Origin: Bacillota bacterium
Lineage (GTDB): Bacteria; Bacillota; Negativicutes; CTSoil-072
DNA: 64,000 bases
Assembly (NCBI GenBank): GCA_017889545.1
Contig: JAGFZV010000016.1
Coordinates: 9,124 to 73,123 of the forward strand
Reading direction: 5' to 3'
The position numbers were made by a program, and so were the translations under genes. Shown here piece by piece: positions 4,541 through 20,078 of this stretch. Numbering within the stretch: the first letter of the stretch is position 1; each line of letters begins with the position of its first letter. The notes under the pieces were generated by a model. That model did not search any database and was not told the origin of the DNA. It worked only from the letters and a program-made list of their open reading frames with translations.

Positions 4541-4565
4541 AAATTTTTCTCCTCCTTTATAAAAT

Positions 4566-5672
4566 TTACTTGGCAACAAATTTTCCTTGCAGGTGCAAAA
4601 TTTTATCCAGTTTTTCCTCCGCAATATGATCGGCGACTCTGTATGTCGGAACATTTGTTTTCTGAGAAATTTCAAAAATGCGGCTGACTGTCTCATAAAT
4701 TAAGCTGGCATTTTTAAACGCACGATCTTTATTAAACCCTTCAAATTCATCGGCTACCGCAATCAGTCCGCCGGCATTGACCACATAATCCGGCGCATAG
4801 AAAATCCCTTTTTCATGCAGGATATCACCATAACATGGGTCCGCCAATTGATTATTCGCCGCTCCGCAAATTGCTTTGCATTGAAACTGCGAAATGGTTT
4901 CGCCATTAATAATTGCTCCCATGGCATTAGGAGAAAGAATGTCGCATTCTACGCCTAATATCTCGTCTGGCTGAACCATCTTAATTGCCGGATATGCTGC
5001 ACTGACAGCATGAACATTATCCTCAAAGATGTCAGTAGCAATCACCAAAGCCTTTTCGCTTAACAAATGTTTCACCAATTCCTGCCCCACTTTGCCAAGC
5101 CCCTGAACAGCAACCGTTAATCCTTCCAGAGAATCACTTCCAAATGCTTTTTTGGCTGTCGCTTTCATTCCTCTATATACCCCAAAAGCAGTAATGATGC
5201 CAGAGTTCCCGCTTCCGCCATACTCTTCCGGCAATCCATTCACAAAGTCGGTTTGCTTATGAGCCGAAACGAAATCCATACTTACGGTACCCACATCGGT
5301 TCCAGTCCAAAAACGTCCTTTCAAAGTTTCAACAAACGAGCCTAACGCTTGAAAAAGTTCATCGGATTTTTCGTCCTTCGGATCACCGATGATCACTGTT
5401 TTTCCGCCGCCGCACATGACATTGGAAATAGCACATTTATAGGTCATGCCGCGCGAAAGACGCAATGCATCAATGATAGCATCTTTTTCTGACCGGTAAT
5501 TCCACATCCGGCATCCGCCCAGCGCCGGTCCCAGGGTAGTGTCATGGATCCCAATAATTGCCTTTAATCCTGTCGCTTTGTCATAATTAAAAATCAGTTG
5601 TTCATGTCCATGTTTTTCCATTTGTTCAAAAATACTGAATTCTTGTTCTCTGTTTGCAGTCAATTCTACCAT
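4566..5672 (-). CDS. Glu/Leu/Phe/Val dehydrogenase family enzyme (leucine/phenylalanine dehydrogenase-like)
   Basis: N-terminal block ...KAIIGIHDTTLGPALGGCRMW and the catalytic Lys motif CGGGKTVIIGDP match this family. The start is set at the internal ATG (MVELTAN...) with RBS AGAGAGGA. Confidence 0.7.
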   Translation of the reverse strand: MVELTANREQEFSIFEQMEKHGHEQLIFNYDKATGLKAIIGIHDTTLGPALGGCRMWNYRSEKDAIIDALRLSRGMTYKCAISNVMCGGGKTVIIGDPKDEKSDELFQALGSFVETLKGRFWTGTDVGTVSMDFVSAHKQTDFVNGLPEEYGGSGNSGIITAFGVYRGMKATAKKAFGSDSLEGLTVAVQGLGKVGQELVKHLLSEKALVIATDIFEDNVHAVSAAYPAIKMVQPDEILGVECDILSPNAMGAIINGETISQFQCKAICGAANNQLADPCYGDILHEKGIFYAPDYVVNAGGLIAVADEFEGFNKDRAFKNASLIYETVSRIFEISQKTNVPTYRVADHIAEEKLDKILHLQGKFVAK

Positions 5673-5932
5673 TCCTCTCTTTTCAAAAGATCCGTGCAGA
5701 TAACTCAAACCAAACCCACTCTTGTCAGTCAACCCGGTTCCATTCATGGTTTCACCTTGTCCTATTTTCATCATAGTCCAACTTTTCACATAAATCTGTT
5801 GTCAACTTTACTTTTTATAAAATATTACAACGTGTTAAAGCCTGATCATTCGCATAAATAATCTCACTTATGGCGAAAAGCATTAATGACTTTATAGTCT
5901 ATTCAGAATATAATATATTTACTTAGGTAATA

Positions 5933-6643
5933 ATGGAGAAGGGAGTGCTTGGGCTGAATAAACAAAATACCGATTTACTGGCTTCACCTTGGATCCGCAT
6001 CAACCCCAACATAGACTGGGATCATATCTTAGCAACCAGCAATGTCCGTGTGTGTAAAAAAGGCGATGTGATTATTAATGCCGGCGACTCAATTGAATCT
6101 CTATATTTTCTAAAAACAGGACGAATAAAAACAATTGCAATCAGTTCTGCCGGAAACCAAAAAATCATCTGGTATATCGATCATGACTGTTTTTTTGGCG
6201 AAACTCCTTTTTTCAACCACAAAACATGCGATTATATTTTTGTTGCAGACACGGAATGCGAAATTTATCTTTTCCCGCGCGAAATCGTCCAAAAAGAGAT
6301 CATTCCTAATCATTCCGATATCACCTTATCCATTATTGAAACATTAGCCCGTAAAGTACATATATTATCGACCCAAGTGGAAGATTTTACGTTTAGCAAG
6401 GCGATCATTCGTATTGCCAAAGTGATCTACTTTTTTTATGAAGGATATGCGCTTACTGAAAAGAAAGTACCTCTGAAAATACCCCTGACTCAGGAAATCA
6501 TAGCAGAAATGGTCGGCATACATCGAGTAACGGTAAATCAAGTTCTTAAACAATTTAAAAGTCAGCAAATTTTAGAAGAGCATTCGCATTTAATCATCAT
6601 CAAAAATTTAGAAAAACTAAAAGAAATTATTTATTCGAGTTAA
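5933..6643 (+). CDS. Crp/Fnr family transcriptional regulator
   Basis: A 236-aa cNMP-binding beta-barrel followed by a C-terminal HTH (EIIAEMVGIHRVTVNQVLK). Confidence 0.6.
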   Translation: MEKGVLGLNKQNTDLLASPWIRINPNIDWDHILATSNVRVCKKGDVIINAGDSIESLYFLKTGRIKTIAISSAGNQKIIWYIDHDCFFGETPFFNHKTCDYIFVADTECEIYLFPREIVQKEIIPNHSDITLSIIETLARKVHILSTQVEDFTFSKAIIRIAKVIYFFYEGYALTEKKVPLKIPLTQEIIAEMVGIHRVTVNQVLKQFKSQQILEEHSHLIIIKNLEKLKEIIYSS

Positions 6644-6731
6644 ACATCCAAATATGTTGTAAAATAACCCCATTTTTAATCGTACCACTATATAATATGC
6701 CTTTGTGGCCTTCAGATAAAAACGCATAAAC

Positions 6732-6775
6732 AAAGAAACCGTTAAGGCTGGTCTTCCAGCTTTAACGGTTTCTTT
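6732..6775. terminator. bidirectional Rho-independent terminator between convergent crp (+) and gntR (-)
   Basis: Perfect 13-bp stem aagaaaccgttaa/ttaacggtttctt flanked by A- and T-runs. Confidence 0.55.
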
Positions 6776-6888
6776 TACGCCATGATTCAGAGAACCTTGC
6801 CGAAGTCTATGAACAACTTCCATCAAATAGTATTTTAAGAAATCCTTTACAAAAAATTGCTCATTCCTGTATTTAACACTTGTTGAAG

Positions 6889-7578
6889 TTAAAAAAAGGT
6901 CCGAACAAATTGCATATGTTCCGCCATTGCATCGCGAGCTTGCTTAGCGTTCCCAGTAGTAATACTTTCATAAATCAGTATATGCTGTTTTAATAAAACT
7001 TTAGAGTTTTCAGGGTTAGCAATAATTAAACGATGCATAGTGCCAATGTAAGATCTGACAACCTCATGAATAGAAGAATATAAATAATACAGCAACTTAT
7101 TGTGACTTGCCATGACAATTAAAGTGTGAAAATCTTTATCAATCTCTGCCAATTTAGACTCTTCCTGCGAATTTATCAATTGTTCTATGTATTCCTTCAA
7201 AGTTGCTTTTTCTTCCGGACTAATCCTTTCCGCAGCCAAACCGGCACACTGAATTTCCAGGATAGATCTCACTTCACTCAATTCAGTTAGATTGTCTTCT
7301 AGCGCATAAATCAGAGAAAGAGGTTCAAACAATTTTTCTTGAGGAAAAGAATCTGCAACAAAAGTGCCGCGGCCATGAGAACTAACAAGAAGGCCCATCA
7401 TTTCCAATGAACGCAATGCCTCTCGCACTGCAGAACGGCTTACCCCTAATCGGCTGGCTAGTTCTCGTTCTGATGGCAATTTATCTCCTTTGCGCAATTT
7501 CTTATGATAGACCATCTGCTTGATTTGATCGGTCACCAATTTATATATTTTAGATGTCACAATTTGCTGAAATTCCAT
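6889..7578 (-). CDS. GntR family (FadR/FCD subfamily) transcriptional regulator
   Basis: N-terminal GntR wHTH (LPSERELASRLGVSRSAVREALRSLEMMGLL) plus an FCD-type C-terminal domain. RBS AAAGGAG. It sits next to larA and the lactate operon, consistent with a LutR/LldR-like role. Confidence 0.7.
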   Translation of the reverse strand: MEFQQIVTSKIYKLVTDQIKQMVYHKKLRKGDKLPSERELASRLGVSRSAVREALRSLEMMGLLVSSHGRGTFVADSFPQEKLFEPLSLIYALEDNLTELSEVRSILEIQCAGLAAERISPEEKATLKEYIEQLINSQEESKLAEIDKDFHTLIVMASHNKLLYYLYSSIHEVVRSYIGTMHRLIIANPENSKVLLKQHILIYESITTGNAKQARDAMAEHMQFVRTFF

Positions 7579-7612
7579 ATTGTGGTCTCCTTTTCACCAA
7601 GCAGGTGATGCG

Positions 7613-7656
7613 CATTGCCCAATAGCCTGTCAAATCTTGACTATGCTATTGGGCAA
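7613..7656. promoter_or_regulatory. 13-bp inverted repeat (attgcccaatagc ... gctattgggcaat) with an internal gtcaaatcttgac palindrome, between gntR start and larA stop
   Basis: Read directly. No U-tract follows on the minus strand, so it is more likely an operator (GntR autoregulation) than a terminator. Confidence 0.3.
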
Positions 7657-7852
7657 TACTGGTAGATTATTGTATATGATCAATTCGTTACGCTTCGGTC
7701 TGATTCCTGTTGGAACTACAATATAACTATTGAATTGCTTCAGGGTATTTCACCAAAAGTAATTCTAGGAACAACCAAAATCCTGCGACAGAGTTGTTAA
7801 CCAAATACCCCAAGATACTTTTATAACGGTTTACTTTATTATTTTGCCGCAT

Positions 7853-9130
7853 TTACTCTTTCACAATAACAGATACGCCGTCAGGAATAACTGTTATCTT
7901 AGCTTCTTTCCCTACTAGCTCTTCCGCCATAATCATGGCTTCCTCAAGAGAGCTGGCAGCACGCATATGCATACTTTCGATCAGGCGATGATCACATTGA
8001 TCGGTAACAATGATGATTTTGTGCCTGATCTGTATACGAGCCAAAATTTGGGCTTCCCACTGATCTGCAATTGTTGAGAAGGCATCAATAGCCATAATCT
8101 TGTCCAATATTTCTTGTGGACTGCTTGCTTTTGCAAACCAATTATAAAAAGCGTCACCACCATGTCCATCGTTACAGGCAGAACAAATAATAATAACTCC
8201 GCCTTTTTTGCATGTTGCTTCTGCCGCTGACATGCCTTTTACGCTTTGGTAGATATTTTGATCCAACGGATATCCACCGTTCGAAGTAATGACAATATCG
8301 GCTGGCTTCGCATCTACCGCAGCCAATCTGCCAACAAAAATACAGCCTTCTTCATGTGCCTTTTCAAAGTCGCCGGCAAACGCTTTTATTACTTTTTTAT
8401 CCGCATCAATGACAACATTTACGATAAAGGCCAATTTAGCCTGACGGGCAGCGCTGATCATATCGCGGTGAAGCGGATTGCCTTCTAAAATACCCGTTCT
8501 GGCATTTTCTGAGGCAATAAAATTAGAACAGTGATTTGCCAGAACAGTAACTTGGCTTACAACTCCTGGCAAAACGCTTTTGCGTCCACCGGAAAATCCA
8601 GCGAAAAAGTGAGGTTCAATAAAGCCTTCAGAAACTAAAAGATCTGCCTCAGCTGCTACTTTATTCAGCAAAATATCTCCGCCAGATGGCAATTTCCCGA
8701 TATTGACCATATCCTCTTGTTTGCGTGAATCATGTATTACGATATTTTCCTCATTAACAATTTTTTCGCCGAACTTATTCAACAGCTCTTCTTGTGTGCT
8801 AGCCCGATGAAACCCAGTGGCAATCAACAGCGTAATACTGGCGTCAGGATTATCTGACCTGATTTCCTCTAATATCAGCGGCATAACAATTCTACTTGGT
8901 ACAGGCCTTGTGTGGTCACTGCTGATAATGACAATATTTTTTTTGTCCTTGGCTAAATCTCTCAGCCTGGCAGAATCAATTGGATGCTTCAATGCGCTCT
9001 GCACTAAATCTGTCTCACTGGCTTCCGGAGTATAATCATTCGCTTTGGAAGTCAATATTCCTAACAAACGCTCATCCGGCAGTTCGAAATCCATCGTTCG
9101 CTTGGCGTAGGGTATTTTTACAATTGCCAC
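7853..9130 (-). CDS. larA: nickel-pincer-nucleotide-dependent lactate racemase LarA (DUF2088)
   Basis: 425-aa ORF carrying the LarA-family SDHTRP motif and conserved His/Lys region. GTG start with RBS GGAGGG. It is the last gene of the lactate-utilisation operon. Confidence 0.75.
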   Translation of the reverse strand: MAIVKIPYAKRTMDFELPDERLLGILTSKANDYTPEASETDLVQSALKHPIDSARLRDLAKDKKNIVIISSDHTRPVPSRIVMPLILEEIRSDNPDASITLLIATGFHRASTQEELLNKFGEKIVNEENIVIHDSRKQEDMVNIGKLPSGGDILLNKVAAEADLLVSEGFIEPHFFAGFSGGRKSVLPGVVSQVTVLANHCSNFIASENARTGILEGNPLHRDMISAARQAKLAFIVNVVIDADKKVIKAFAGDFEKAHEEGCIFVGRLAAVDAKPADIVITSNGGYPLDQNIYQSVKGMSAAEATCKKGGVIIICSACNDGHGGDAFYNWFAKASSPQEILDKIMAIDAFSTIADQWEAQILARIQIRHKIIIVTDQCDHRLIESMHMRAASSLEEAMIMAEELVGKEAKITVIPDGVSVIVKE

Positions 9131-9230
9131 TTATCATTCCCTCCATACACAAAATTATTACATCATTTTTTTAAAAGCAATATTGAAATTATTCTTTGTA
9201 AAAAGAAATGGACTGAATTTTTTACTGTAT

Positions 9231-10550
9231 TTATGAAACTTTACTCTTTTTCACAGTAGTTTCAGCGCCGACCTGATAAGATTTGTCCAGCAATTGGATG
9301 ACATGGACAACGTCTTGGGGCAGCTTATAACGTTCGAGACCGTCAATAATATGCATCCGGCACATGCCGCAACTTGTGGCGACAATATCCGCCTTTGTGT
9401 CCGCAATGTTTTCGATCTTGCGATTATTAATTTTTAAAGCTACATCGTAATGCGCCACGCTGAACGATCCACCCGCGCCGCAACAACGGTCGGCGTCTTT
9501 CATTTCAACAAATTTGAGTCCGGGAATAGATTGTAAAATTTCGCGAGGCTGTGAAGTCACTTTGATTCCCCTGGCCATATGGCAGGGATCATGCATGGTT
9601 ACTGTAATATTCACTTCGCCCAGCTTGGATTGATCAAACTTCACAACGTCAACCAAAAATTCGCTGATTTCGTAGGTTTTCTTTGCAATGGCTTCCGCCC
9701 GTTCTTTCATTTCCGGATCATCATGGAACATTTCCGGGTATTCTTTTTTGAAAGCCATTGTGCAGGAGCCGCAACTGGCGACGATGTAATCCAACTTGTA
9801 ACGCTCAAAGGTTTCAATATTGTGTTTGGCAAATACTTTCGCCAATTCAATATCGCCGGATGTGAAAACCGGAATACCGCAGCAGTGCTGCATGGGCGGC
9901 ATCACCACTTCCACATTGTTCTTTTTCAACACATTGATGACGGCTTTGCCAACATCCGTATAAATATAATTGATTGTGCAGCCGGTGAAGAAGCCAACCC
10001 GCATTTTGGGGTTATCGACTTTGATCACTTCGGGATACTGACTGCGCAGCGGCGTGGCGGCAAAAGGCGCCAAAACCCGGCGTCGATCCAGACCAGGCAT
10101 GGGGAAACGTAGGAGTCTCGCCATTGGCCGCGGTAATTTTTTAAAGCTTAATGGTCCGAACAAGCCGGCCATGCGAAGAGAAAAATCAAACAGCCGCCGA
10201 TTTTTCAATAACTTAAACACCATATTTTTGACTGGATGCAAACCACGCGAACTTACAGCGGCTTGACGGGCGCGGATAATCAGTTCGTCCGCTTTGACTC
10301 CGCACGGACATTTGGCAGTGCAGGCCTTGCAAGATACGCACATCGACATCCGTTTGTCGAAACCGGCGGTGATCTCGCTGTTGCCGTTGAGTACAGCTTC
10401 CATTAACGAAAGTTTACCGCGGGCGACAGCAGATTCTGTCTTCAGTTCTTTATAAATCGGGCAGACCTCCATACAGTTGCCGCATTTCATGCAATTGGAA
10501 ATGGCGTCGTTGATATCCCTCAGAAGTTCTTTATCTTTGATCATTATCAA
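9231..10550 (-). CDS. (Fe-S)-binding CCG-domain oxidoreductase subunit (GlcF/LutA-like) of lactate/glycolate dehydrogenase
   Basis: Two N-terminal 4Fe-4S ferredoxin motifs (CMKCGNCMEVCP; CVSCKACTAKCP) and two C-terminal cysteine-rich CCG domains. The start overlaps the upstream glcD-like stop. Confidence 0.65.
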   Translation of the reverse strand: MIMIKDKELLRDINDAISNCMKCGNCMEVCPIYKELKTESAVARGKLSLMEAVLNGNSEITAGFDKRMSMCVSCKACTAKCPCGVKADELIIRARQAAVSSRGLHPVKNMVFKLLKNRRLFDFSLRMAGLFGPLSFKKLPRPMARLLRFPMPGLDRRRVLAPFAATPLRSQYPEVIKVDNPKMRVGFFTGCTINYIYTDVGKAVINVLKKNNVEVVMPPMQHCCGIPVFTSGDIELAKVFAKHNIETFERYKLDYIVASCGSCTMAFKKEYPEMFHDDPEMKERAEAIAKKTYEISEFLVDVVKFDQSKLGEVNITVTMHDPCHMARGIKVTSQPREILQSIPGLKFVEMKDADRCCGAGGSFSVAHYDVALKINNRKIENIADTKADIVATSCGMCRMHIIDGLERYKLPQDVVHVIQLLDKSYQVGAETTVKKSKVS

Positions 10551-11905
10551 CCCTCCTTGACGCGATTGACGGGATTTAAAATGTTGTTAGGATCTAAAGA
10601 AAATTTAATCGCTTGTTTGGCGTACGTTTCCGGCTGTCCTGACCGATCCTCTTGGAACCGGCTGCAAAAAATTCCGCCTAATTCAAGAGCAGCGGCTGAT
10701 ATCTCCTTCATTGCATTCGAGGCATGAGAAATCAAGCTTTTATCGGATGCATTAAAAAGAATTGTCGGATGCAGTACGCCATCACCAATGTGGCCAAAGG
10801 CAGCAATTGTAAGCTTGTTTTTCGAAGCAATCGAGGTAATTTTGTCGACCATATCTGCCGCCTTGCTTCGGGGGATGATCGCATCGGTCATCCACATAAT
10901 GTCATTCGATTTGGCGAGCGACGTGATGGCTGCTCTACGGGCATTCCAAAATGCATCTTGTTCTATTTCGGTTTCGGCTACCGTAACCTGTTGTACATTG
11001 TGGGCTTGCAAAATGGCGCTTATTTTTGCCATATCATTTTCGACAACCTTTGTAATCCCGTCAATTTCGATGATCAGCGCCGCTTTGATATCAGGCGGCA
11101 AGCTGGACGGAGCTTTGCTGCCCAAAGCTTGAATTGTCACGGAATCCATAAATTCGAGGGTCGCAGGTACTATTTTATCGTCAAGGATAGCTTTGACCGC
11201 TTTACCGGCATCGACAAAGTTTTTAAAGCCTGCCAGCAGGCATTTTTGGGTTTCTGGGGCCGGCATCAATTTTACAATCACTTTGGTAATAATGCCTAAC
11301 GTTCCTTGGGATCCGGTCATTAGTTTCGTTAGGTCATATCCGGCTACGTCCTTTACATTTTTGCCGCCGGTTTTTAATATTTTTCCGTCAGCTAAGACAA
11401 CTTCCAATCCCATAATGTAATGTTTGGTACTCCCATACTTCAGACTCCGTATATTCGTTGCGTTTTGTGCCACCATGCCGCCGATTGTAGCGGTAAAAAT
11501 AGTTCCCGGATCAGGGGGAAATATCAGACCGAATTTTTTTACTTCCTTGTTCAAGTCGGCGACAAAAATGCCTGGTTCTACAGTTGCCGCCAGGTTTGCC
11601 GTATCAATTTCCAGAAGAGAATTCATTCGCCTGAGAAGCAAGATAATTCCACCTTCAACAGGAGTTATGGCATTGTATAAGTTAGATCCATAGCCTCGAG
11701 GATATACCGGGATTTTTTCTGCATTGGCCAATGCCAGAACCCGGGACACTTCCGCAGTATCGGCTGGCTCTATGATTGCATCCGGAAGTCTTGAAAAACC
11801 CGGATCCTTATCATATGCATATTCCAGCAACGTGTCGTTAGCAGTAAGCACATGATTCGCTCCGACAATTCGGGAGAAAGCATCAATGAGGTCTTGTCGC
11901 ATCAT
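10547..11905 (-). CDS. FAD-linked oxidase (GlcD/D-lactate dehydrogenase family), copy 2
   Basis: 452-aa FAD-binding PCMH domain plus C-terminal FAD-oxidase domain (GHIGDGVLHP). RBS AAAGGAG. Confidence 0.7.
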   Translation of the reverse strand: MMRQDLIDAFSRIVGANHVLTANDTLLEYAYDKDPGFSRLPDAIIEPADTAEVSRVLALANAEKIPVYPRGYGSNLYNAITPVEGGIILLLRRMNSLLEIDTANLAATVEPGIFVADLNKEVKKFGLIFPPDPGTIFTATIGGMVAQNATNIRSLKYGSTKHYIMGLEVVLADGKILKTGGKNVKDVAGYDLTKLMTGSQGTLGIITKVIVKLMPAPETQKCLLAGFKNFVDAGKAVKAILDDKIVPATLEFMDSVTIQALGSKAPSSLPPDIKAALIIEIDGITKVVENDMAKISAILQAHNVQQVTVAETEIEQDAFWNARRAAITSLAKSNDIMWMTDAIIPRSKAADMVDKITSIASKNKLTIAAFGHIGDGVLHPTILFNASDKSLISHASNAMKEISAAALELGGIFCSRFQEDRSGQPETYAKQAIKFSLDPNNILNPVNRVKEG

Positions 11906-11949
11906 TACAAGCTCCTTTACAAAAAATAGTTATATCACCAAATCCAACT

Positions 11950-13335
11950 TCAAGGTACCTGCATTTCACCAAGCATTTTTCCTGGATTTAAAATGTTGTT
12001 CGGGTCTATTGCTTGTTTAATCGATCGCATTACACTCATACCCGCTTCACCAAACTGATTGGGCATATATTTTAACTTACCTAGCCCAATGCCATGCTCA
12101 CCGGAAAGTGTTCCTCCCAACGCCAAGGCAGTCATGAAAATTTCTTCCATCGCCTGGTAAACACGTTTCATCTCTTCTTTATCACGAAGATCGGTAACAA
12201 TTGTGGGATGTAAATTTCCATCTCCGGCATGGCCGAACGTACCGATCTGCACATTGTATTTTTGGGCAATATCAATAACGGCCCGCAACATATCCGGAAC
12301 CTTGCTTCTCGGAACAGTCGCATCTTCGCAAAATGTTGACGGCCGCAACTTAGCTAATGAAGGAAGTGCCGCCCGGCGTGCCGCCCACACCTGATCCCGT
12401 TCCTGCGAACTTTTCGCAACCTTTACTTCACCATGATTTTCACGCAATACCTTCTCCATCTTCAAAGCATCTTGTTCAACCGTATCATAATCGCCGTCAA
12501 CCTCGGCAAGAATAATTGCTTCCGCCTCTACCGGAAGACCTAATTTCACAAAACTTTCCACCGTACGAATCGTATAGTTATCCATTATTTCCAGCGTAGC
12601 AGGAATAATATTATGACTGATAATATCAGCAATCGCCTTGCCAGCATCATTCAAATCGCCAAAAACCGCCATCATACTCTTACGGTGGGCCGGTGCCGGC
12701 ATAAGGCGTACGACAATTTTGGTAATAATGCCCAACGTTCCTTCAGATCCGGTTAACAACATGACCATATCATAGCCCGGAGCATGGGCTGTCCGGCCGC
12801 CGAATTCCACAATTTGACCATCCGCTAGAACCGCCTGCAAGCCAATCACATAATGTTTGGTTACGCCATACTTCAATCCCCTCAGACCGCCTGAATTTTC
12901 CGCAACCGTTCCGCCAATCGACGCGGTTGCCACGGTTCCCGGATCAGGTGGGTATATCAATCCGAATTTTTCTACAGCCACATTTAATTCCTGAACAATC
13001 ACCGCCGGTTCTACAACGGCAATCCGGTCAATCGGATCGATCTCGACGATTTTATTCATTCGAATTGTAAACAGCACAATCCCACCCGACATCGGGACTG
13101 CACCTGCACTGAGATTGGTCCCTGATCCGCGGGTATACACCGGAATTTTTTCTCGATTGGCTAATTTTACTATTTGCGATATTTCCTCTGCATTCGCAGG
13201 TTGTACAATGGCGTCCGGCAAATTAAAGAACCCCGGGGTAGCATCATAACCAAAGCAGATTAAATCTTCTTTTTCAGTCTGGACCCATTCATTGCCGACA
13301 ATAGCCTCTAATTCTTTGATCAACTGCTCTTTCAT
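11950..13335 (-). CDS. FAD-linked oxidase (GlcD/D-lactate dehydrogenase family), copy 1
   Basis: 461-aa paralog of the adjacent gene (GHAGDGNLHP) and first gene after the promoter palindrome. Confidence 0.7.
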   Translation of the reverse strand: MKEQLIKELEAIVGNEWVQTEKEDLICFGYDATPGFFNLPDAIVQPANAEEISQIVKLANREKIPVYTRGSGTNLSAGAVPMSGGIVLFTIRMNKIVEIDPIDRIAVVEPAVIVQELNVAVEKFGLIYPPDPGTVATASIGGTVAENSGGLRGLKYGVTKHYVIGLQAVLADGQIVEFGGRTAHAPGYDMVMLLTGSEGTLGIITKIVVRLMPAPAHRKSMMAVFGDLNDAGKAIADIISHNIIPATLEIMDNYTIRTVESFVKLGLPVEAEAIILAEVDGDYDTVEQDALKMEKVLRENHGEVKVAKSSQERDQVWAARRAALPSLAKLRPSTFCEDATVPRSKVPDMLRAVIDIAQKYNVQIGTFGHAGDGNLHPTIVTDLRDKEEMKRVYQAMEEIFMTALALGGTLSGEHGIGLGKLKYMPNQFGEAGMSVMRSIKQAIDPNNILNPGKMLGEMQVP

Positions 13336-13400
13336 CGATCATTCCCCATCTTTCAATTTAATTAACTACCCGGTTTCTTCATGCAAAACAAGTTTGCGTC

Positions 13401-13420
13401 ACCACTATGATCATAGTGGT
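13401..13420. promoter_or_regulatory. perfect 20-bp palindrome ACCACTATGATCATAGTGGT in the glcD-operon promoter (candidate GntR/LutR-type operator)
   Basis: Read directly. A second partial copy aaccactatgatca lies at 13464-13477, and a ttgactatcgtcaa palindrome at 13442-13455. Confidence 0.4.
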
Positions 13421-13579
13421 TAATTGTATCTTGCGAAGTATTTGACTATCGTCAAGATCATTTAACCACTATGATCAATTTGTTTTTGGCTGATTTTATG
13501 CAATTAGATTAAATTATCGTTACTATTTGTGGTAAAATCGTCCTCTAAATATTTTCTCCATACCCTTTCAAAAATTTCA

Positions 13580-15241
13580 TTATGGAAGCATCCAGCCGAG
13601 AACGTAGGCTTGCAAATAAGTCAATACCCCCATAAAGATAACCATCGCAATGCTGTGCGGCAACGCAAACCGGAAGATGGTTGACTCCTGCCCAACCAAA
13701 CCGGTAGCAGCGCACGCAACGGAGATACTTTGCGGCGAAATCATTTTACCGCAAACACCGCCGGACGAGTTGGCCGCCACAGTAAGTGTCGGGTCAATAC
13801 CAAGCTGCTCCGCAGCTGTTTTTTGCATCGAACCAAACAAAGCGTTGGATGAAGTATCTGACCCTGTCAAGAAAACCCCCATCCAGCCCAACAGTGGCGA
13901 GAAGAAGGGGAATAATGCCCCAGTGGCAGTAAAAGCAAGACCCAGCGTAGAGCTCATGCCCGAATAGTTCATGATGTAAGCCAAACCAAGGATCATCGCG
14001 ATCGTGGCAATCGGGAACATCAGTTGCTTGATCGTTCGGAAAAAGCAAGTGAACGCTCTCCCAAAACTATAATTTGGCATAATAAAAATGGAAAGCAGAC
14101 CCGATAAAAAGATCGCTGTACCGGCTGCAGACAAGAAATTGATCGCATAACCGGCCGCATATGGAGTATTTTTAATCACAACAGGAGCCGTTTTAATCAC
14201 GAGGTTATGCAATCCAGGCCAGACCAAAGGAGTCAATCCAAGGGCTTTCTCCCAGCCAACCAGTGTGTTTTTAAAACCAAGGAATTTATCATCCGCCCAT
14301 AAGAATACGAGGACGGCCAGAATCAAGTACGGTGCCCATGCACGCAAAATCTCTCCCATTGAATAGTCACTTTTGGTTATGCCCACAGACGGTTTTTCAT
14401 CCGGAAAATGCCACACCTGGCTCGGCTTCCAGAATTTAAGAAAAACCAGCAAACCAACCATAGTAACAAAAGCTGACGTAATATCCGGCAAATACACGCT
14501 AATGTAGTTGGAAGTATAAAATTGCGTAGCGGCAAAGCAAACACCGGCAACAATAACCGCCGGCAAGACTTCCATTGACCGTTTCCAGCCGCACATTAAA
14601 ACAACCAGCCACAAAGGTACGATAACCGAAAGAAACGGCAGTTGACGGCCAACAACCTTGCTGATCGCCATTGGATCAATACCGGTAACCTGCCCGGCCA
14701 CTACGACCGGAATGCCGATAGCGCCAAAGGCGACCGGCGCCGTATTGGCGATCAGGCAAATACCGGCGGCATAGACCGGGTTAAAGCCAAGACCCACCAG
14801 CATAGCGGCAGTAATTGCCACAGGCGTGCCAAAACCGGCGGTGCCTTCAATGAATGAACCAAAGGCGAACGCGATGAACAACGCTTGCAGCCTCCGGTCA
14901 TCGGTAATCGCCGCCAACGAATTCTTAATAATCTCAAATTCGCCGGATTCGACGGTCATATTATAAACCCAAATCGCGGTGACGACGATCCAGACGATCG
15001 GGAATATGCCTACCATTGCACCATTTAACGTGGCACTAATTGCAAGTCCGACAGGCATTTTAAAAACAAATATTGCAATCAAAATAGCGGATAAAACCCC
15101 GAAAAACGCCGCATTGTGTCCTTTGGACCGTTTAATGCCCAGCATATACAATAAGATAAATAATGGGATCGCTGCAACTAAAGCGGATAAACCGATACTT
15201 CCTAACGGAGCATAGTTCTGAAGCCACATGAATGAATACAC
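13580..15241 (-). CDS. lctP: L-lactate permease (LctP family)
   Basis: 553-aa polytopic membrane protein with an LctP-family N-terminus (MWLQNYAPLGSIGLSALVAAIPL...). Confidence 0.75.
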   Translation of the reverse strand: MYSFMWLQNYAPLGSIGLSALVAAIPLFILLYMLGIKRSKGHNAAFFGVLSAILIAIFVFKMPVGLAISATLNGAMVGIFPIVWIVVTAIWVYNMTVESGEFEIIKNSLAAITDDRRLQALFIAFAFGSFIEGTAGFGTPVAITAAMLVGLGFNPVYAAGICLIANTAPVAFGAIGIPVVVAGQVTGIDPMAISKVVGRQLPFLSVIVPLWLVVLMCGWKRSMEVLPAVIVAGVCFAATQFYTSNYISVYLPDITSAFVTMVGLLVFLKFWKPSQVWHFPDEKPSVGITKSDYSMGEILRAWAPYLILAVLVFLWADDKFLGFKNTLVGWEKALGLTPLVWPGLHNLVIKTAPVVIKNTPYAAGYAINFLSAAGTAIFLSGLLSIFIMPNYSFGRAFTCFFRTIKQLMFPIATIAMILGLAYIMNYSGMSSTLGLAFTATGALFPFFSPLLGWMGVFLTGSDTSSNALFGSMQKTAAEQLGIDPTLTVAANSSGGVCGKMISPQSISVACAATGLVGQESTIFRFALPHSIAMVIFMGVLTYLQAYVLGWMLP

Positions 15242-15790
15242 CTCTCTCTTCTAATCGAATAACAAAGCATAACCATCTTTCGACTCTTTGCCCTTTCACC
15301 TCCCTTTCATTTTTTTTGCTCGCCCAAAAATGTTCGTCTACAAACCTCCTCCAACATTACAAGATCCGGGCTGTGACAAGCTTTGTCGACTGCAAAAGCT
15401 ATAGGTTGGACTTATATCTGCCACAAAAAATATCTTTTCTGATGAATAAGAAATAATAACGATAGATCCTAATTGAGAAGCTGTTTAGAACCAAATCATA
15501 TTAGTCCAAGTCATACCTGCCTTGCTGTTTGCAGTTACAGGGAACTGTGATGACATCTCATTTCCATTCGCCTTTGAATGATTGGCGCATGATATTGTTG
15601 GCGTCAGCTGCTTCTTCTTAAACGGCAAATCATAGTCGCGATACTTTCTAAGACTTAGCAAACTTCATAAGATCTTCCGTTTTTTAGACTGATTGATTCC
15701 AACATTGCTTGTCCCAATGTTGTGGTTGTTTGGCAAAGCCGATCCGTTCTCGTCCTTCCATCTATTTCATGCAATAAAAACCAGTCACCC

Positions 15791-15805
15791 AGTGGTCCTA
15801 CCACT
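15791..15805. promoter_or_regulatory. AGTGGTcctACCACT inverted repeat matching the GntR/FadR-type TGGTnnnACCA operator consensus
   Basis: Read directly inside the 880-bp non-coding stretch upstream of lctP. It shares the ACCACT/AGTGGT half-site with the 13401 palindrome. Confidence 0.3.
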
Positions 15806-16124
15806 ATTCCAATTATTATTGTAAATTATTTTAACTGAAAAAACAATGTATTTAGACAAGTTAAAATATTAACATGATTTTGCTTTTTGTCCGATCAGCG
15901 AGACACATTACGTTCAAGCACTACTGACTTCATCAATAAAATTGTTATACCATAATTCGGTAAATTTGCTTAGTCTTTTCAAAAAGAAAGATCTAAAACT
16001 TTATAAATTATGTTTTTTGTGGTATCCTTATCCATGTTCCGCTTCCTTATGTTAGAGGTTATGGATAGAGTTCCCTGCCCCATCTCTATTGGCACAGCAT
16101 AAATTTATGAGGAGAGTTGATAAT

Positions 16125-16826
16125 ATGGAGTTAACGAACGAGCAGAGAACTGCATTGAAAGGAAAGGGCTATATCACCATGAAGGACGGCCTTCATTTTT
16201 CCTGCCGGGTTGTAATCTCAGCCGGAAAAATAAGTGCGTTACAAGCCCAAAAAATAACAGAAATCTGTCAATCCTATGGAAAAGGATATTTCACTATAAC
16301 CCATCGCTCCAATGTACAGATCCCATGGGTGCAGTATGAAGACTTGGACAATGTGGCTAAGTCGCTTGAAGAGGCCGGCTTATCGATTGGCGGAACCGGG
16401 CCGAGAGTACGACCGGCTCATAACTGCAAAGGCCCTGCATGTCGGTTCCATTTGTATGATACGGAAGCTGCTGCGCAACAAATGAATGAACGATTTTACA
16501 AGGGTTATTACGACGTTAAACTTCCCAGCAAGTTTAGAATACAACTAAGCGGATGCCCAAACAATTGCGCTAAGACTCAGTTAGGCTGCGTAAGTCTGCA
16601 AGGCAGAAGACCTAATCAAGTAGCTGTTTTAATCGGCGGAATGTCGGGAAGAAACACTATCGTTGGCAAAGAAATAGCCGGCCTTTACTCCATTCCTGAA
16701 GCCATGGATATGATAGAAACCGCTTTGCAATTTTATAAAGAAAACGGTCTTCCAGGTGAACGCTTTGCCAAAATGGTGGATCGAGTAGGGTTCGAAAATG
16801 TCGAGAAAGCTTTGTTAGGCAACTGA
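16125..16826 (+). CDS. nitrite/sulfite reductase ferredoxin-like half-domain protein (siroheme/4Fe-4S type)
   Basis: The track ORF starts at a TTG at 16089. The ATG at 16125 is preferred because of the GAGGAGAG RBS. Cys motifs CKGPACRF and CPNNC match the NiR/SiR siroheme-[4Fe-4S] coupling signature. Confidence 0.5.
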   Translation: MELTNEQRTALKGKGYITMKDGLHFSCRVVISAGKISALQAQKITEICQSYGKGYFTITHRSNVQIPWVQYEDLDNVAKSLEEAGLSIGGTGPRVRPAHNCKGPACRFHLYDTEAAAQQMNERFYKGYYDVKLPSKFRIQLSGCPNNCAKTQLGCVSLQGRRPNQVAVLIGGMSGRNTIVGKEIAGLYSIPEAMDMIETALQFYKENGLPGERFAKMVDRVGFENVEKALLGN

Positions 16827-16854
16827 AAAATTTTTGTTTTAGACAACGCAAAAG

Positions 16855-16908
16855 AAAACATTGGAAGCGCACTGATCCTTGTCAGTGCGCTTCCAATGTT
16901 TTCTTTTT
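16855..16908. terminator. bidirectional Rho-independent terminator (19-bp perfect stem, loop tccttg, T-tract)
   Basis: aacattggaagcgcactga-tccttg-tcagtgcgcttccaatgtt followed by ttctttttat, between convergent genes. Confidence 0.65.
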
Positions 16909-16949
16909 ATAAACGAATCCATAATTCCCTGTTTTATTTATGTTGCAAA

Positions 16950-17768
16950 CTACTCAATCCAAGTTACCTTTAACGGATTTCTGTCGACTAACCGTTTGAA
17001 TGTATATTGGGGATAACCCAGCATCATTGTTCCGGCCACAGTAAATCCCTCCGGTATTTGCATTAATTCTAAAAGTGGTTTATATTGTGAACCTGCAACC
17101 ATTTCTACAAAACCAGCCCAGCAAGTTCCAAGTCCCATTGCTGTTGCATACAATTCTACATACTCCAGTGAAAAACGCGCATTGTCATGTGCCATTTCAA
17201 AACCTTGCGGCGCAATGGCCGCGATCAGACAAGGAGCGTCACGCAAAATAACATCCACGTTTTGTTTACGATAAGCTTCTGCCAATCCAGCAAACGGCCT
17301 TACCCATTCAACCTTATCCGCAAGTTGCTTTTCCAACCAAATTATTGTTGCTTCCGTTATTTTTTTAAGCTTTTCAGCATTTTCAATTACAACATAGGAT
17401 AAGCCCTGCGAATTACAGCCCGAAGGTGCAAATCTAGCAATGTCGAGCAATTTTGCGACCGTTTCTTTGGCTATTTTATCTTTTTTATATTTCCGTATGG
17501 AACGTCGTGACCGCAAAAATACGGCTGCCGTATCTGCATCAATTATTGGATATTTATCTAATGCCACTTGGTTATTAAGTGGTGCTTTCACATGATCCAA
17601 CGCCGCTGTCGGGCAAACTGCCGTACAGTGTCCACAAGCAATACAAGCTGATGCATAAAGCATTTGCGGTCCTTCCGGTCTCATGCCGATAATACCGCTG
17701 GGGCATACCTCAGAACAAATCCCACATTTTATACAAAGATTATGATCAATTTTTAATAGTTCCACCAA
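16950..17768 (-). CDS. 2x[4Fe-4S] ferredoxin-nitroreductase family fusion protein
   Basis: An N-terminal CIKCGICSEVCP / CIACGHCTAVCP pair is followed by a nitroreductase-fold domain. TTG start with RBS AGGGGGG. Confidence 0.6.
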   Translation of the reverse strand: MVELLKIDHNLCIKCGICSEVCPSGIIGMRPEGPQMLYASACIACGHCTAVCPTAALDHVKAPLNNQVALDKYPIIDADTAAVFLRSRRSIRKYKKDKIAKETVAKLLDIARFAPSGCNSQGLSYVVIENAEKLKKITEATIIWLEKQLADKVEWVRPFAGLAEAYRKQNVDVILRDAPCLIAAIAPQGFEMAHDNARFSLEYVELYATAMGLGTCWAGFVEMVAGSQYKPLLELMQIPEGFTVAGTMMLGYPQYTFKRLVDRNPLKVTWIE

Positions 17769-18067
17769 ATCGCCCCCCTAAATTATCATTTACTAGCAAT
17801 GAAATGAGATAGCTTGCCTCGCAAACAGATTTAAGCAAACGCTCACTCTCCCGGGTGAGCGTTTGTTCTTTTTCAACGGGTGATGGGTTTTCGGCATGCT
17901 TTCCTTGGCAACCCAGATAATCTCCAGCCGGCATTAGGTGGTGAGCCCTCCTCTTACTGTTGCTGCATCTCTACTTTATCCCGTTGTTAGATCTTAAATA
18001 CATTTTTGATAACAGAATTCCTTTTCCCAAAAAACATAATGACTCTTTCTTCACCAATGGCTGTTCT

Positions 18068-19330
18068 TCATTTAAAAGAAAACTTTATCTTGAACTCAGT
18101 CCCTACCCCTATAGTGCTTTTAACACTTATCTTGCCACCGTGCTTATTGACTATCCATTCTCCAATAGCCAAACCCAAGCCGTAGCTTGCGTCATTACCG
18201 GACCGAGCCTTGTCGGCACGGTAGAAACGCTGAAAAATCAAGGGAAGGTCGCTTTCGGCTATGCCGATACCAGTGTCCTTTACGATCAAATCCACGGAAG
18301 CGTCCTTTTTGGTACAAGTTACCGTAATGCTTCCACCGGCCGGAGTGTATTTAACCGCATTGTCGAGCAAAATAACCGACAACTGATAAAGCCTTTCGCG
18401 GTCCCCGGTCATGGCGATAGCCCCCTCAATATTGGTATGAATGCTGATATTCTTGTATGCCGCAAGAGCTTGAAACTGTTGTGTAACATCGACAAGTATA
18501 GTATCAAGCATAACAGGACCCAAATTCAGCTCTAACTCATCGGAATCCGCCCTGGCCAGCGTCAGCAAGGATGAAACCAATTTGCCCATCCGCGTGGACT
18601 GATTGATAATGGCCGCAATTCGCTCACTTTCTTTTTCGATGGAATTGCCGGGATTTTGCAGAAGCAATTCCGCATTAGATCTAATAACCGCGAGGGGCGT
18701 TCTCAATTCATGGGATGCGTCGGCAACAAATTGCCGCTGTTTTTCCCACGCGGCCCTGATGGTCAATAACAGCTTCCGTGTCATGTAATAGGTGAGCAAT
18801 GCGAACAGAACGGCGCCAGCTATGCCGCCTGGCACATTGAGCAGTAGAAAGGTGTCAAGAATATCCACTTCCGATGAAATATTAGCCAGCGCCACCAACT
18901 CTTTGGCAACATAGCTCTCCGTCCCTTCCCATAAAACCGGGTATTGATTTTCGGGGAAGGAAAGCCGAAAAATCCGGTAGGAACTGCCATGAACCTTTGC
19001 CGTGTGGCCGCCGGGCGACGGAGGTTCGTCAAGCAGGGTCTTAATATCTTCAGGGGGAATTCTCCCCGACGGATGAAGATCGATATACCGGTCATTTTCG
19101 TCGCGAATATATACCACCGGCAAGATGCCCATAGGCAATCGCATGGAATGAAACTCCGGCCCCTGATGGGCGCGGTAAAAGCCATTTATTTCGAATTGCA
19201 TATCAGCATCGATTTTTTCATATATCCGGTATTCAAAATACGAGTGGGAAACAACGTTATAGAGGATAAACAAACAGAATATGGCTATGGCATTTAATGT
19301 GGACAGTTTAAGCTGGACATTTTGGAACAA
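18068..19330 (-). CDS. sensor histidine kinase (periplasmic sensor, HisKA + HATPase_c)
   Basis: Two TM segments flank a ~150-aa extracytoplasmic domain. H-box ASHELRTPLAVIRSNAELL and G1/G2 boxes (DTGIGI, GLGLAI) are present. Confidence 0.7.
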   Translation of the reverse strand: MFQNVQLKLSTLNAIAIFCLFILYNVVSHSYFEYRIYEKIDADMQFEINGFYRAHQGPEFHSMRLPMGILPVVYIRDENDRYIDLHPSGRIPPEDIKTLLDEPPSPGGHTAKVHGSSYRIFRLSFPENQYPVLWEGTESYVAKELVALANISSEVDILDTFLLLNVPGGIAGAVLFALLTYYMTRKLLLTIRAAWEKQRQFVADASHELRTPLAVIRSNAELLLQNPGNSIEKESERIAAIINQSTRMGKLVSSLLTLARADSDELELNLGPVMLDTILVDVTQQFQALAAYKNISIHTNIEGAIAMTGDRERLYQLSVILLDNAVKYTPAGGSITVTCTKKDASVDLIVKDTGIGIAESDLPLIFQRFYRADKARSGNDASYGLGLAIGEWIVNKHGGKISVKSTIGVGTEFKIKFSFK

Positions 19331-19391
19331 GGACAGTCTGGTCAGTCACATTTCTCTCATCCCACCTTTGACGAATATTTGGCATCGGCTG

Positions 19392-20078
19392 TTATTCCCT
19401 GCCGCTATGGCCTTTTAGCATATAACCAACATTGCGGATGGTCCGGATGATGAAATCGTTCCTTGCTGCAACAAGCTTCTTGCGCAAATGGTGAATGTAC
19501 ACATCCACAATGCCATAACTGCTTTCCGTTTCGAAACCCCAAAGACGGTCGAAAATTTGTTCACGGGTCAAAATGCGTTCACGATTTATTATAAAGAATT
19601 CGAGCAAGTCGAATTCTTTTGTTGTCAGACTCAATGCAAGAGATTTATAAAACCCTTCTTTTTGTTCCAGATCCAAAACCAGTTCTTTGTAGGCAATGGA
19701 AGAATGATTGGGACCATAGCCCTTCCGTCGCAGCAAGGCCCGTGATCTCGCCGTCAATTCAGCCAGTGAAAAAGGTTTTACGAGATAGTCATCCGCCCCC
19801 GTGTTCAGGCCGAGGACGCGGTTTTCCACACTGTCCTTGGCAGTAACGAGCAAAATGGGAATTTGATTGCCCTGATGGCGCAGACGTCTGATTACTTCCA
19901 GTCCATCCACTTCCGGCAGCAGAATATCCAATACCAGCAAGTCATAAATTCCTTTTTGGACCTCGAAAATACAATGATCCCCCTGCCCGGTTTCATCGAC
20001 GGTATATCCTTCCTTCCGCAAGGCATCAGCAATTGATTTTCTGAGCATTTCATCATCTTCGGTAACAAGAACCTTCAT
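19392..20078 (-). CDS. OmpR-family response regulator
   Basis: REC domain (VLVTEDDE...DLLVLDILLP) plus a winged-helix trans_reg_C. RBS AAAGGAG. Confidence 0.75.
   Translation of the reverse strand: MKVLVTEDDEMLRKSIADALRKEGYTVDETGQGDHCIFEVQKGIYDLLVLDILLPEVDGLEVIRRLRHQGNQIPILLVTAKDSVENRVLGLNTGADDYLVKPFSLAELTARSRALLRRKGYGPNHSSIAYKELVLDLEQKEGFYKSLALSLTTKEFDLLEFFIINRERILTREQIFDRLWGFETESSYGIVDVYIHHLRKKLVAARNDFIIRTIRNVGYMLKGHSGRE

Follow-up and report, generated by a model that had tools for sequence, protein, structure and literature searches.

Organization of the locus

The stretch of DNA analyzed here, referred to as the window, comprises 64 kb (64,000 nucleotides, nt) of contig JAGFZV010000016.1 from a metagenome-assembled genome (MAG) deposited as 'Firmicutes/Bacillota bacterium', the closest relative of which among the searched species-representative genomes is an 'uncultured Negativicutes bacterium'. 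On the minus strand it carries six genes in the order lctP, glcD1, glcD2, FeS (encoding an Fe-S subunit), larA and gntR, with the operon proteins deposited as MBP2641141-46 (Table 1). An earlier sequence-only reading of the interval 7853-15241 had described a lactate-utilization cluster of these six genes; its positions, strand and order are borne out by the coordinates of the open reading frames (ORFs) and by Pfam and NCBIfam matches, gntR falling just outside the interval, and its functional assignment to lactate utilization holds as well. The operon is largely ordinary; its one unusual feature is GlcD2, a second flavoprotein which has lost catalytic residues and evolves approximately six times faster than its neighbors.

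The gaps between the genes measure 244 nt for lctP-glcD1, 44 nt for glcD1-glcD2 and 274 nt for larA-gntR. The glcD2 stop and the FeS start either overlap or lie 2 nt apart, depending on the FeS start that is chosen. For FeS, the ATG at 10544 is the probable start and yields the 437 aa of MBP2641143; for lctP it is the one at 15229, which yields the 549 aa of MBP2641146. FeS and larA are separated by 100 nt in the window and by 14 nt in L012, one of the two related metagenomic contigs in which the six-gene layout is complete; in the other, L006, the flanking genes are also the same. A more distant relative, L093, holds a partial LctP-GlcD1-GlcD2-FeS core on a short contig. As the six-gene layout recurs in L006 and L012 and its core in L093, the genes have not been juxtaposed by chance. 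In L012, the closest GTDB MAG, lctP (6571-8223) is broken into two ORFs of 292 and 246 aa, which represents either a frameshift pseudogene or an assembly error.

Table 1. Genes and other features of the window, with the evidence for each
Feature	Coordinates	Strand	Evidence or remark
lctP, lactate permease	13580-15241	-	Pfam Lactate_perm PF02652 583 bits; TIGR00795 590 bits (cutoff 341)
glcD1, predicted catalytic subunit of a flavin adenine dinucleotide (FAD)-dependent D-2-hydroxyacid (D-lactate) dehydrogenase	11950-13335	-	FAD_binding_4 and FAD-oxidase_C
glcD2, full-length GlcD paralog without the Glu-His dyad, GlcE-like by analogy	10547-11905	-	FAD_binding_4 and FAD-oxidase_C
FeS, 2x[4Fe-4S] ferredoxin-like subunit with two CCG domains	9231-10550	-	Pfam CCG x2, Fer4_8
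larA, predicted nickel-pincer-nucleotide (NPN)-dependent lactate racemase	7853-9130	-	NF033504 661.7 bits (cutoff 460)
gntR, GntR/FCD regulator, FadR subfamily, LldR-like	6889-7578	-	Pfam GntR 72 bits, FCD 92 bits
Second LarA homolog, outside the operon	37188-38579	-	Lar_N 218 bits
Acid-sugar cluster, on one strand	35438-40924		IlvD/Edd-family dehydratase, LarA homolog, PdxA-family dehydrogenase, DtnK-like four-carbon acid-sugar kinase
Candidate operator ATAGTGGTAGGACCACT, TGGTnnnACCA type	15791-15807		Directly after -10-like TACAAT, ~550 nt upstream of lctP
Three more TAGTGGT half-sites	13401-13477		lctP-glcD1 gap
Inverted repeat, 13-bp perfect stem and inner 5-bp stem	7614-7657	-	21 nt before the gntR ribosome-binding site; fold -31 kcal/mol, z = -5.8
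Intrinsic-terminator-like hairpin	6724-6780	-	Downstream of gntR; fold -31.4 kcal/mol, z = -6.5; followed by U-rich CUUUGUUUAU

Loss of the active site in GlcD2

GlcD1 provides the reference against which its paralog is best described. Its nearest solved relatives are all FAD D-lactate dehydrogenases (D-LDHs; 9qgz/9qit, LctD from Acetobacterium woodii and mouse LDHD), the best matches in the PDB being 9qgz (D-LDH, 324 bits) and 7qh2_C (LctD, 314 bits). In the LctD structure the metal site is formed by His377, His384 and Glu422, the catalytic base is His423 and the carboxylate is bound by Arg328 (PMC9232219). GlcD1 keeps the equivalents of R328, H377, H384 and E422-H423, the latter pair within a GEHG motif. 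As the closest solved relatives are FAD D-LDHs, racemization feeding a D-specific FAD enzyme, as the sequence-only reading had proposed, is the natural interpretation of the locus; from these structures and the presence of LarA we infer a specificity for D-lactate.

GlcD2 is a full-length protein of 452 aa that is 46% identical to GlcD1 and belongs to a clade of nine 90%-identity clusters, all metagenomic and sharing 58-99% identity. A look-up on contigs for exact copies of the window's GlcD2 gave no hit, and the comparisons were made with these relatives. A 9-residue deletion found throughout the clade removes GEHGIGLGK and with it the equivalents of Glu422-His423, that is, one metal ligand and the catalytic base. 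Two further changes are clade-wide: ENSGG has become QNA(T/S)(N/S), thereby replacing G153/G154 of the flavin-contact loop, of which Gly153 hydrogen-bonds the flavin through its backbone in LctD (PMC9232219), and GDGNLH has become GDG(V/I/A)LH, altering the N374 position that is invariant in catalytic GlcDs. The equivalents of R328, H377, H384 and D346 are retained. Because the Glu-His dyad is missing, GlcD2 cannot, as far as its residues tell, be a second oxidase of the usual kind, and the earlier description of two GlcD-like FAD oxidases has to be corrected on this point.

The rate at which GlcD2 changes also sets it apart from its neighbors. Between the window and L006, protein identity is 70% for GlcD2 vs 94% for LctP, 94% for GlcD1 and 95% for FeS; nonsynonymous divergence (dN) is 0.197 for GlcD2, approximately sixfold the values of 0.035 for LctP, 0.031 for GlcD1 and 0.027 for FeS, and the ratio to synonymous divergence (dN/dS) is 0.20, compared with 0.03, 0.04 and 0.03, respectively. 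The comparison with L012 agrees (GlcD2 67%, GlcD1 90% and FeS 92% identity), and across both comparisons GlcD2 dN/dS lies at 0.13-0.20, indicating purifying selection. Divergence is concentrated in the cap (substrate) domain, where identity per 40-residue block is 50-68%, compared to 75-90% in the FAD domain. At least nine lineages retain an intact ORF of 447-452 aa that is free of frameshifts and internal stops, and 184 alignment columns are invariant across the nine members. An AlphaFold2 model, with a predicted local distance difference test (pLDDT) score of 83 and template-modeling scores of 0.87-0.89 to D-LDH structures, predicts the whole D-LDH fold.

E. coli GlcE lacks the same Glu-His region as GlcD2, and by analogy we read GlcD2 as a GlcE-like non-catalytic partner subunit of independent origin. 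The nearest 50%-cluster representatives to a GlcD2 profile are in many cases long proteins: 99 of the 148 checked have at least 650 aa, and 93 of these 99 carry exactly one GEHG-like motif, located at about residues 390-445 in those listed; in each of the 20 sequences read, the motif falls within the first GlcD unit. Both long representatives that were run against NCBIfam proved to be GlcD-GlcE fusions. The pairing of a catalytic with a Glu-His-less unit in such proteins is thus a general design, of which we regard GlcD2 as a separate, recent derivation. About two thirds of the sequences P0152-P0299 have 650-990 aa; the ones inspected are GlcD-GlcE fusions whose only GEHG motif lies in the N-terminal half. 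About seven single-domain relatives are likewise without the Glu-His dyad. A broad family of degenerate FeS-adjacent GlcDs was considered and rejected, as P0113 (GERGGG) is a singleton whose nearest relative, at 82%, has an intact GEHG; the losses of the catalytic His seen outside the clade of GlcD2 and P0026 (P0113 and P0077) are isolated single sequences.

Origin of GlcD2

A bootstrapped neighbor-joining tree of GlcD sequences nests the GlcD2 clade (100% support) inside a clade of FeS-adjacent Negativicutes GlcDs (94%) that includes Thermosinus, Sporomusa, Anaeroselena and Pelosinus. The sister of the GlcD2 clade is P0026, which reads GEYGRG, having exchanged His for Tyr with no deletion. 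GlcD1 belongs to a separate clade (100% support) of LctP-linked GlcD1 genes, the other members of which are found in 'polyprenyl synthase-GntR-LctP-GlcD1-TatC' loci or solo at that place, and never beside an Fe-S gene. By this placement, GlcD2 is a descendant of the FeS-adjacent GlcD of Negativicutes.

Synteny adds to this picture. GlcD2-FeS pairs occur alone directly after lgt in L001/L002, L003, L011, L091/L092 and L097/L098, and in Thermosinus the syntenic place at lgt is occupied by a GlcD-FeS pair that is still intact. The binned MAG CAYUNV01 contains two GlcD1, two GlcD2 and two FeS, distributed over the complete operon (L012), a pair at the lgt locus (L011) and a GlcD1 on its own (L060). 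In L097/L098 (ENA ERZ27260953 k141_3222020; JGI 3300033406), a second LctP and a GlcD2-FeS pair lie behind lgt and beside an Ech/Mbh-type membrane hydrogenase cluster. This locus, with MBP2639566/MBP2639573, probably belongs to the window's own MAG; relative to the window, its LctP is 97%, its GlcD2b 65% and its FeS 95% identical, and no GlcD1 is present there. Judging from these arrangements, the operon looks like a fusion of an LctP-GlcD1 module with a copy of an lgt-type GlcD2-FeS module and with larA.

A fuller history can be proposed tentatively, at slightly less than an even chance. In it, GlcD2 would be an independently evolved pseudoenzyme subunit, and a two-subunit (GlcD)2-FeS lactate dehydrogenase (LDH) of Negativicutes would be seen midway through its conversion into a three-subunit GlcD1-GlcD2-FeS enzyme, in a repeat of the way in which GlcE arose. 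The dyad would have been lost stepwise, by a His to Tyr change as in P0026 and then by the 9-aa deletion, with a separately encoded GlcD1 taking over catalysis. GlcD2-FeS would then act as an electron-output module that can be redeployed; each genome would hold two copies, and one of these would have been joined to lctP-glcD1 and larA to form the operon.

Class of the dehydrogenase

The sequence-only reading had likened the dehydrogenase to glycolate oxidase GlcDEF. The three-gene architecture is indeed GlcDEF-like; however, no subunit reaches a curated GlcD, GlcE or GlcF cutoff, and the relatives are two-subunit LctP-GlcD-FeS-GntR loci. Against the GlcD models TIGR00387 (cutoff 567.9) and PRK11230 (cutoff 897), GlcD1 scores 514 and 405 bits and GlcD2 388 and 267 bits. 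The GlcE model PRK11282 gives GlcD2 101 bits (cutoff 284), and E. coli GlcE aligns with it at 32% identity over only 160 aa of the FAD domain. The Fe-S subunit scores 163 bits with the GlcF model PRK11274 (cutoff 333) and is 24% identical to E. coli GlcF, with which it shares the domain layout. Membership in GlcDEF was rejected on these missed cutoffs together with the direct comparison with E. coli GlcD, GlcE and GlcF. Transmembrane (TM) helices are predicted neither in GlcD1, GlcD2 or FeS nor, by the same method, in E. coli GlcD, GlcE and GlcF.

The Fe-S subunit carries two CxxCxxCxxxC motifs (C20/23/26/30 and C71/74/77/81) and CCG at 223 and 356, and it is 92-97% conserved among relatives with dN/dS of 0.03. 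Its NCBIfam matches, all below cutoff, are the LdhH C-terminal half (342 bits), TfrB (242), GlpC (211) and GlcF. Two further classes were set aside. A homology check against LutABC had been suggested; the operon has no match to LutB/LldF or LutC/LldG, and only the ferredoxin-like part of FeS is matched (TIGR00273, 37.6 bits vs a cutoff of 444.8), so LutABC/LldEFG does not apply. The electron-confurcating LDH/EtfAB type is likewise rejected, as no Etf domain occurs in any scanned ORF of the window.

The remaining class is that of Dld-II/LutDF, in which a GEHG-containing GlcD-type flavoprotein and a 4Fe-4S dicluster/CCG subunit are linked to lctP; all of these are present in the window, with the difference that FeS adjoins the Glu-His-less GlcD2 and the catalytic GlcD1 lies one gene upstream. 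LctP-GlcD(GEHG)-FeS-GntR is the dominant arrangement among 80 loci from species-representative genomes, the layout being found in more than 60 related loci, and GntR holds the same downstream position in most LctP-GlcD-FeS loci. By sequence, the dehydrogenase is thus placed with the two-subunit GlcD+CCG lactate dehydrogenases of the Dld-II/LutDF type that are common in anaerobes and not with GlcDEF.

LarA and the NPN cofactor

LarA exceeds the cutoff of the NCBIfam lactate racemase equivalog, and the runner-up model, LarAH6 malate racemase, reaches 391 bits vs its cutoff of 500. In the PDB it matches LarA of Thermoanaerobacterium thermosaccharolyticum (2YJG, 583 bits) and of Lactiplantibacillus plantarum (5HUQ, 517 bits), both alignments being ungapped. 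Along residues 4-424 of the ungapped alignment to 5HUQ, D72, R75, H108, H174, K184, H200, Q295 and K298 are all kept. We take Lys184 to be the NPN tether and His200 to complete the Ni coordination (numbering presumed from Desguin 2015). His108 and His174 are the catalytic pair of LarA (PMC12611868). With these residues conserved, the identification of LarA as a lactate racemase in the sequence-only reading stands, and the protein is predicted to be a bona fide one.

The same reading had counted a second LarA paralog and deduced from the two that the organism makes the NPN cofactor. The paralog exists, and the NPN requirement stands; by every NCBIfam cutoff, however, it is not a lactate racemase, its best match being LarAH6 malate racemase (356 bits vs 500) and its lactate racemase score 299 vs 460. 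It is 31% identical to LarA and keeps the equivalents of H108, H174, K184 and H200 together with the NPN-binding residues. Since the catalytic and cofactor-binding residues are kept, the inferred need of the organism for NPN is upheld. The protein is probably an acid-sugar or hydroxyacid epimerase rather than a second lactate racemase, and it is encoded within the acid-sugar cluster of Table 1.

In the comparison with L006, dS falls from 0.76-1.06 (lctP, glcD1, glcD2 and FeS) to 0.18 in larA and 0.10 in gntR, and DNA identity climbs from 84.5% to 92-94% from gntR onward. The drop in dS suggests a recombination boundary near the FeS-larA junction.

Regulator, promoters and non-coding elements

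The best NCBIfam match of the GntR/FCD regulator is LldR (153 bits vs a cutoff of 311), followed by NanR, GlcC and PdhR. Upstream of lctP, the candidate operator ATAGTGGTAGGACCACT is the sole exact palindrome match within the window, and its core ATAGTGGTAGGACCA is kept at the same place in L006 and L012; the 8-mer ATAGTGGT occurs 6 times in the window vs 0.96 expected. In the lctP-glcD1 gap, a perfect 20-bp palindrome (13401-13420) overlaps the -10-like TATGAT of a weak sigma-70-like match (TTCGCA-16-TATGAT, 9/12), and a 19-nt inverted repeat (13408-13426 / 13459-13477) would fold as RNA to -38.6 kcal/mol (z = -7.5); the arms are kept in L012 and partly in L006. A promoter between lctP and glcD1 is plausible from these sequences. 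The GntR/FCD protein is probably a repressor of two promoters, one ahead of lctP and one ahead of glcD1; it would act on operators of the TGGTnnnACCA type, and lactate is likely to be the inducer.

Two further elements surround gntR. The inverted repeat in front of it is kept in L006 with one compensatory change in the inner stem, is absent in L012 and has no U-tract after it. The hairpin behind gntR was overlooked by the consensus scan for terminators, spotted by eye and confirmed by folding. The leader of lctP (15230-15790, ~550 nt) is ~85% conserved with L006 and shows no convincing small ORF; an Rfam search of this leader and of the whole window returned only a tRNA.

Proposed pathway and its alternatives

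The favored reading, which we regard as fairly probable, is that of a lactate-catabolic operon of an uncultured Negativicutes in which LarA feeds GlcD1 and a GlcD2-FeS module serves for electron output. LctP would import D- and L-lactate, LarA would interconvert the two, and GlcD1, using a metal and FAD at an intact His/His/Glu site with its catalytic His, would oxidize D-lactate to pyruvate. GlcD2, being catalytically dead, would most likely pair with GlcD1, standing in for one of the two protomers that normally form the GlcD homodimer, and would dock FeS, such that electrons would exit GlcD1 via the GlcD2-FeS module of a GlcD1-GlcD2-FeS complex. The two [4Fe-4S] clusters and the CCG-domain clusters would relay them onward, the acceptor probably being the menaquinone pool. 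An electron-output or partner role of this kind is also what GlcE is thought to fulfil in GlcDEF, the role of E. coli GlcE being itself only predicted.

Several observations weigh against parts of this scheme. Pfam and NCBIfam scans of the ORFs of at least 150 aa revealed no larB, larC or larE in the 64-kb window, nor did the adjoining ~5 kb on its right side contain any. It is also uncertain whether GlcD2 binds FAD: in the model, the altered flavin and pyrophosphate loops at 73-79 and 149-160 have a pLDDT below 50. The related genomes L020, L026, L027 and L060 have GlcD1-type genes without an adjacent Fe-S gene, so that GlcD1 may not depend on the GlcD2-FeS module, and the solitary GlcD2-FeS pairs at lgt loci would also fit an independent enzyme. 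The substrate could include glycolate or other D-2-hydroxyacids, as the permease falls below cutoff yet scores nearly equally with the E. coli LldP (624 bits) and GlcA (616 bits) models, and GlcC, NanR and PdhR are among the matches of the regulator. Consensus scanning for promoters and terminators performed at chance level, with 24 promoter-like sites in the region vs 22.7 expected. Lastly, L097 was placed in the same MAG as the window by accession-number proximity and a shared assembly and not by a bin file.

The main rival holds that GlcD1 is a self-sufficient D-LDH and that GlcD2-FeS is a separate two-subunit oxidoreductase, with a remodeled site that acts on another substrate or by a metal-independent mechanism, merely sharing the operon. 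The GlcD1 orthologs of L020, L026 and L027, which have LctP and GntR and no Fe-S gene, speak for it, as do the several genomes with a solitary GlcD2-FeS behind lgt and the purifying selection on GlcD2 with its retained R328, H377, H384 and D346 equivalents. However, the catalytic base and one metal ligand are deleted in every GlcD2 member, and the drift at N374 of GDGNLH and the fastest change in the cap domain are the opposite of what a re-specialized active site would display. GlcD2-FeS has moreover been recruited directly downstream of glcD1 in four lineages, and the numbers of GlcD1, GlcD2 and FeS match in MAG CAYUNV01; we therefore consider a separate enzyme unlikely. The dyad loss, the sixfold dN and the low-confidence flavin loops could instead mark glcD2 as a decaying, functionless duplicate, a nascent pseudogene left between glcD1 and the Fe-S gene. 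This is highly improbable in view of an ORF that is intact at 447-452 aa in all members down to 58% identity, dN/dS values clearly below 1, the 184 invariant columns, the tight glcD2-FeS junction that has been kept and the retention of two gene copies per genome.

A true GlcDEF glycolate oxidase operon that serves to utilize glycolate has about as little to recommend it, and arguably a shade less. The top NCBIfam name for both flavoproteins is glcD, the order of the three genes (D-D'-F) is GlcDEF-like, the permease and regulator have the GlcA and GlcC matches already given, and E. coli GlcDEF also accepts D-lactate. Opposed to this are the GlcD, GlcE, GlcF, GlcA and GlcC scores, which are all below cutoff (514/568, 101/284 and 163/333 for the three subunits), the low identity of FeS to GlcF and the short GlcD2-GlcE match, the absence of both glcB and glcG, and an operon LarA that is a lactate racemase equivalog; the relatives also reside in lactate clusters, namely POR-LarAH10-GlcD-FeS-pta-ack in Sporomusa and the lactate-induced lutP-lutDF-lutR in Desulfosporosinus. 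The slightest chance is given to an anabolic LarA that would not feed the dehydrogenase. Such a role would match the established one in L. plantarum, where LarA provides D-lactate for the cell wall; in the window, larA instead follows the dehydrogenase genes after 100 nt (14 nt in L012), grouped with the genes of a lactate permease and an LldR-like regulator, and catabolic lactate clusters with LarA have been documented (PMC5910564, PMC6372793).

Neighboring genes

Directly upstream of lctP, the window and the otherwise collinear L006 differ in length, with ~13.9 kb (15900-29827) vs 1.66 kb. This segment encodes a small NIR_SIR protein, a nitroreductase-ferredoxin fusion, a histidine kinase/response regulator pair, a radical SAM protein, an ATP-grasp ligase, a DMSO-reductase-family molybdoenzyme with Fer4_11 and NrfD/DmsC subunits, the latter being the anchor, and a TorD-like chaperone, and it looks like a respiratory-reductase island that has been inserted or lost. 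At 51204-57877 lies an ordinary tetrapyrrole/siroheme cluster (hemL-like aminotransferase, hemB, cobA-hemD fusion, hemC, hemA and precorrin-2 dehydrogenase), and a tRNA-Arg(TCG) is found at 63064-63140. On the other side of the operon (3089-5789), an arylsulfotransferase-family protein adjoins a Glu/Leu/Phe/Val-dehydrogenase-family protein, the best NCBIfam match of which is the tryptophan dehydrogenase ScyB (367 bits vs a cutoff of 600); the pair is kept in L006 and L096.

Significance

GlcD2 illustrates, in a form that can be dated, the conversion of a catalytic flavoprotein into a partner without catalysis, and sister taxa still carry the intact ancestors at the corresponding genomic site. 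It could help to establish by which route heteromers of the GlcDEF type originate and which function their Glu-His-less subunit has. In the public annotation, LarA is a 'putative D-mannonate dehydrogenase', the Fe-S subunit is 'lutA 4' and both flavoproteins are a 'putative FAD-linked oxidoreductase'. With these names, metabolic reconstructions from such MAGs will miss the racemase-dependent use of both lactate enantiomers and overcount dehydrogenases by one.

Many components of the locus have precedents. LarA beside GlcD/GlpC genes is known (PMC5910564), COG0277 and COG0247 have been recorded in the contexts of LarA homologs (PMC7583248), and extra GlcD copies have been seen beside GlcD-GlpC pairs (PMC5910564). 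Racemization feeding a D-specific LDH has been proposed for A. woodii-type and GlcD-GlpC-LarA clusters (PMC5910564, PMC6372793). Clusters of a permease, an FAD/Fe-S D-LDH and GntR, as well as Dld-II, GlcDEF and the pairing and fusion of GlcD with GlcE, are also established. In the literature searched, no description was found of the Glu-His-less, fast-evolving clade of full-length GlcD2, of the stand-alone GlcD2-FeS module or of the fusion history of the operon.

Comparison with known systems

Among the closest known systems is Dld-II of Desulfovibrio vulgaris (DVU3027-DVU3028, dld-IIA/B, luo operon). Genetic work has established that it is a D-LDH (Vita et al. 2015, PMC4481167), and DVU3027 has a GEHG-like motif with an essential His (PMC4481167). 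Compared by description and domains, both systems place a GlcD-type GEHG flavoprotein and a separate 4Fe-4S/CCG subunit beside a lactate permease (Pfam PF01565, PF02913, PF13183 and PF02754). Dld-II differs in that it consists of just two subunits and is accompanied by neither a degenerate second flavoprotein nor LarA; instead of a racemase, D. vulgaris employs a separate L-LDH (LldGH). In Desulfosporosinus, lutP-lutDF-lutR is transcribed upon lactate induction, and LarA and LarEBC are encoded in the genome (Hausmann et al. 2019, PMC6372793). These and other LctP-GlcD-FeS-GntR loci of Bacillota share the order of permease, GlcD, Fe-S protein and co-directional GntR with the window, but their GlcD is 57-60% and their FeS 46-48% identical to the window proteins, GlcD2 is lacking and LarA lies outside the operon.

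In E. coli GlcDEF, a catalytic GlcD is likewise combined with a Glu-His-less FAD-domain protein, GlcE, and with a 2x[4Fe-4S]+2xCCG subunit, GlcF, no TM helix being predicted in any of them. GlcE, however, is a protein of 350 aa with a truncated cap domain, whereas GlcD2 has 452 aa and is, by its place in the tree, a recent offshoot of Negativicutes GlcD; the window also differs in having neither glcB nor glcG, in the 24% identity of FeS to GlcF and in the missed cutoffs. The GlcD-GlcE fusions of ~900 aa that are abundant in metagenomes unite one GEHG unit with one Glu-His-less GlcD-like unit, but their second half is of the GlcE type, whereas GlcD2 is nearer to the catalytic halves and is a separate polypeptide.

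The lctABCDEF operon of A. woodii encodes an LDH/EtfAB complex, the permease LctE, the racemase LctF and the GntR protein LctA (PMC9232219, PMC5910564). A GntR regulator, a GlcD-type LDH with the same catalytic residues (LctD, 314 bits to GlcD1), a permease and a LarA-type racemase are thus clustered in both; in A. woodii the electrons pass via bifurcating EtfAB to NAD+, in contrast to the window with its CCG Fe-S subunit and no Etf. Sporomusa has a LarA of another subfamily, LarAH10 (666 bits, cutoff 540), which adjoins GlcD-FeS, POR, pta and ack. The LarA proteins of 2YJG and 5HUQ share all catalytic and cofactor-binding residues with that of the window, where larA has no larBCE nearby and is part of a dehydrogenase operon instead of a larABCDE maturation operon.

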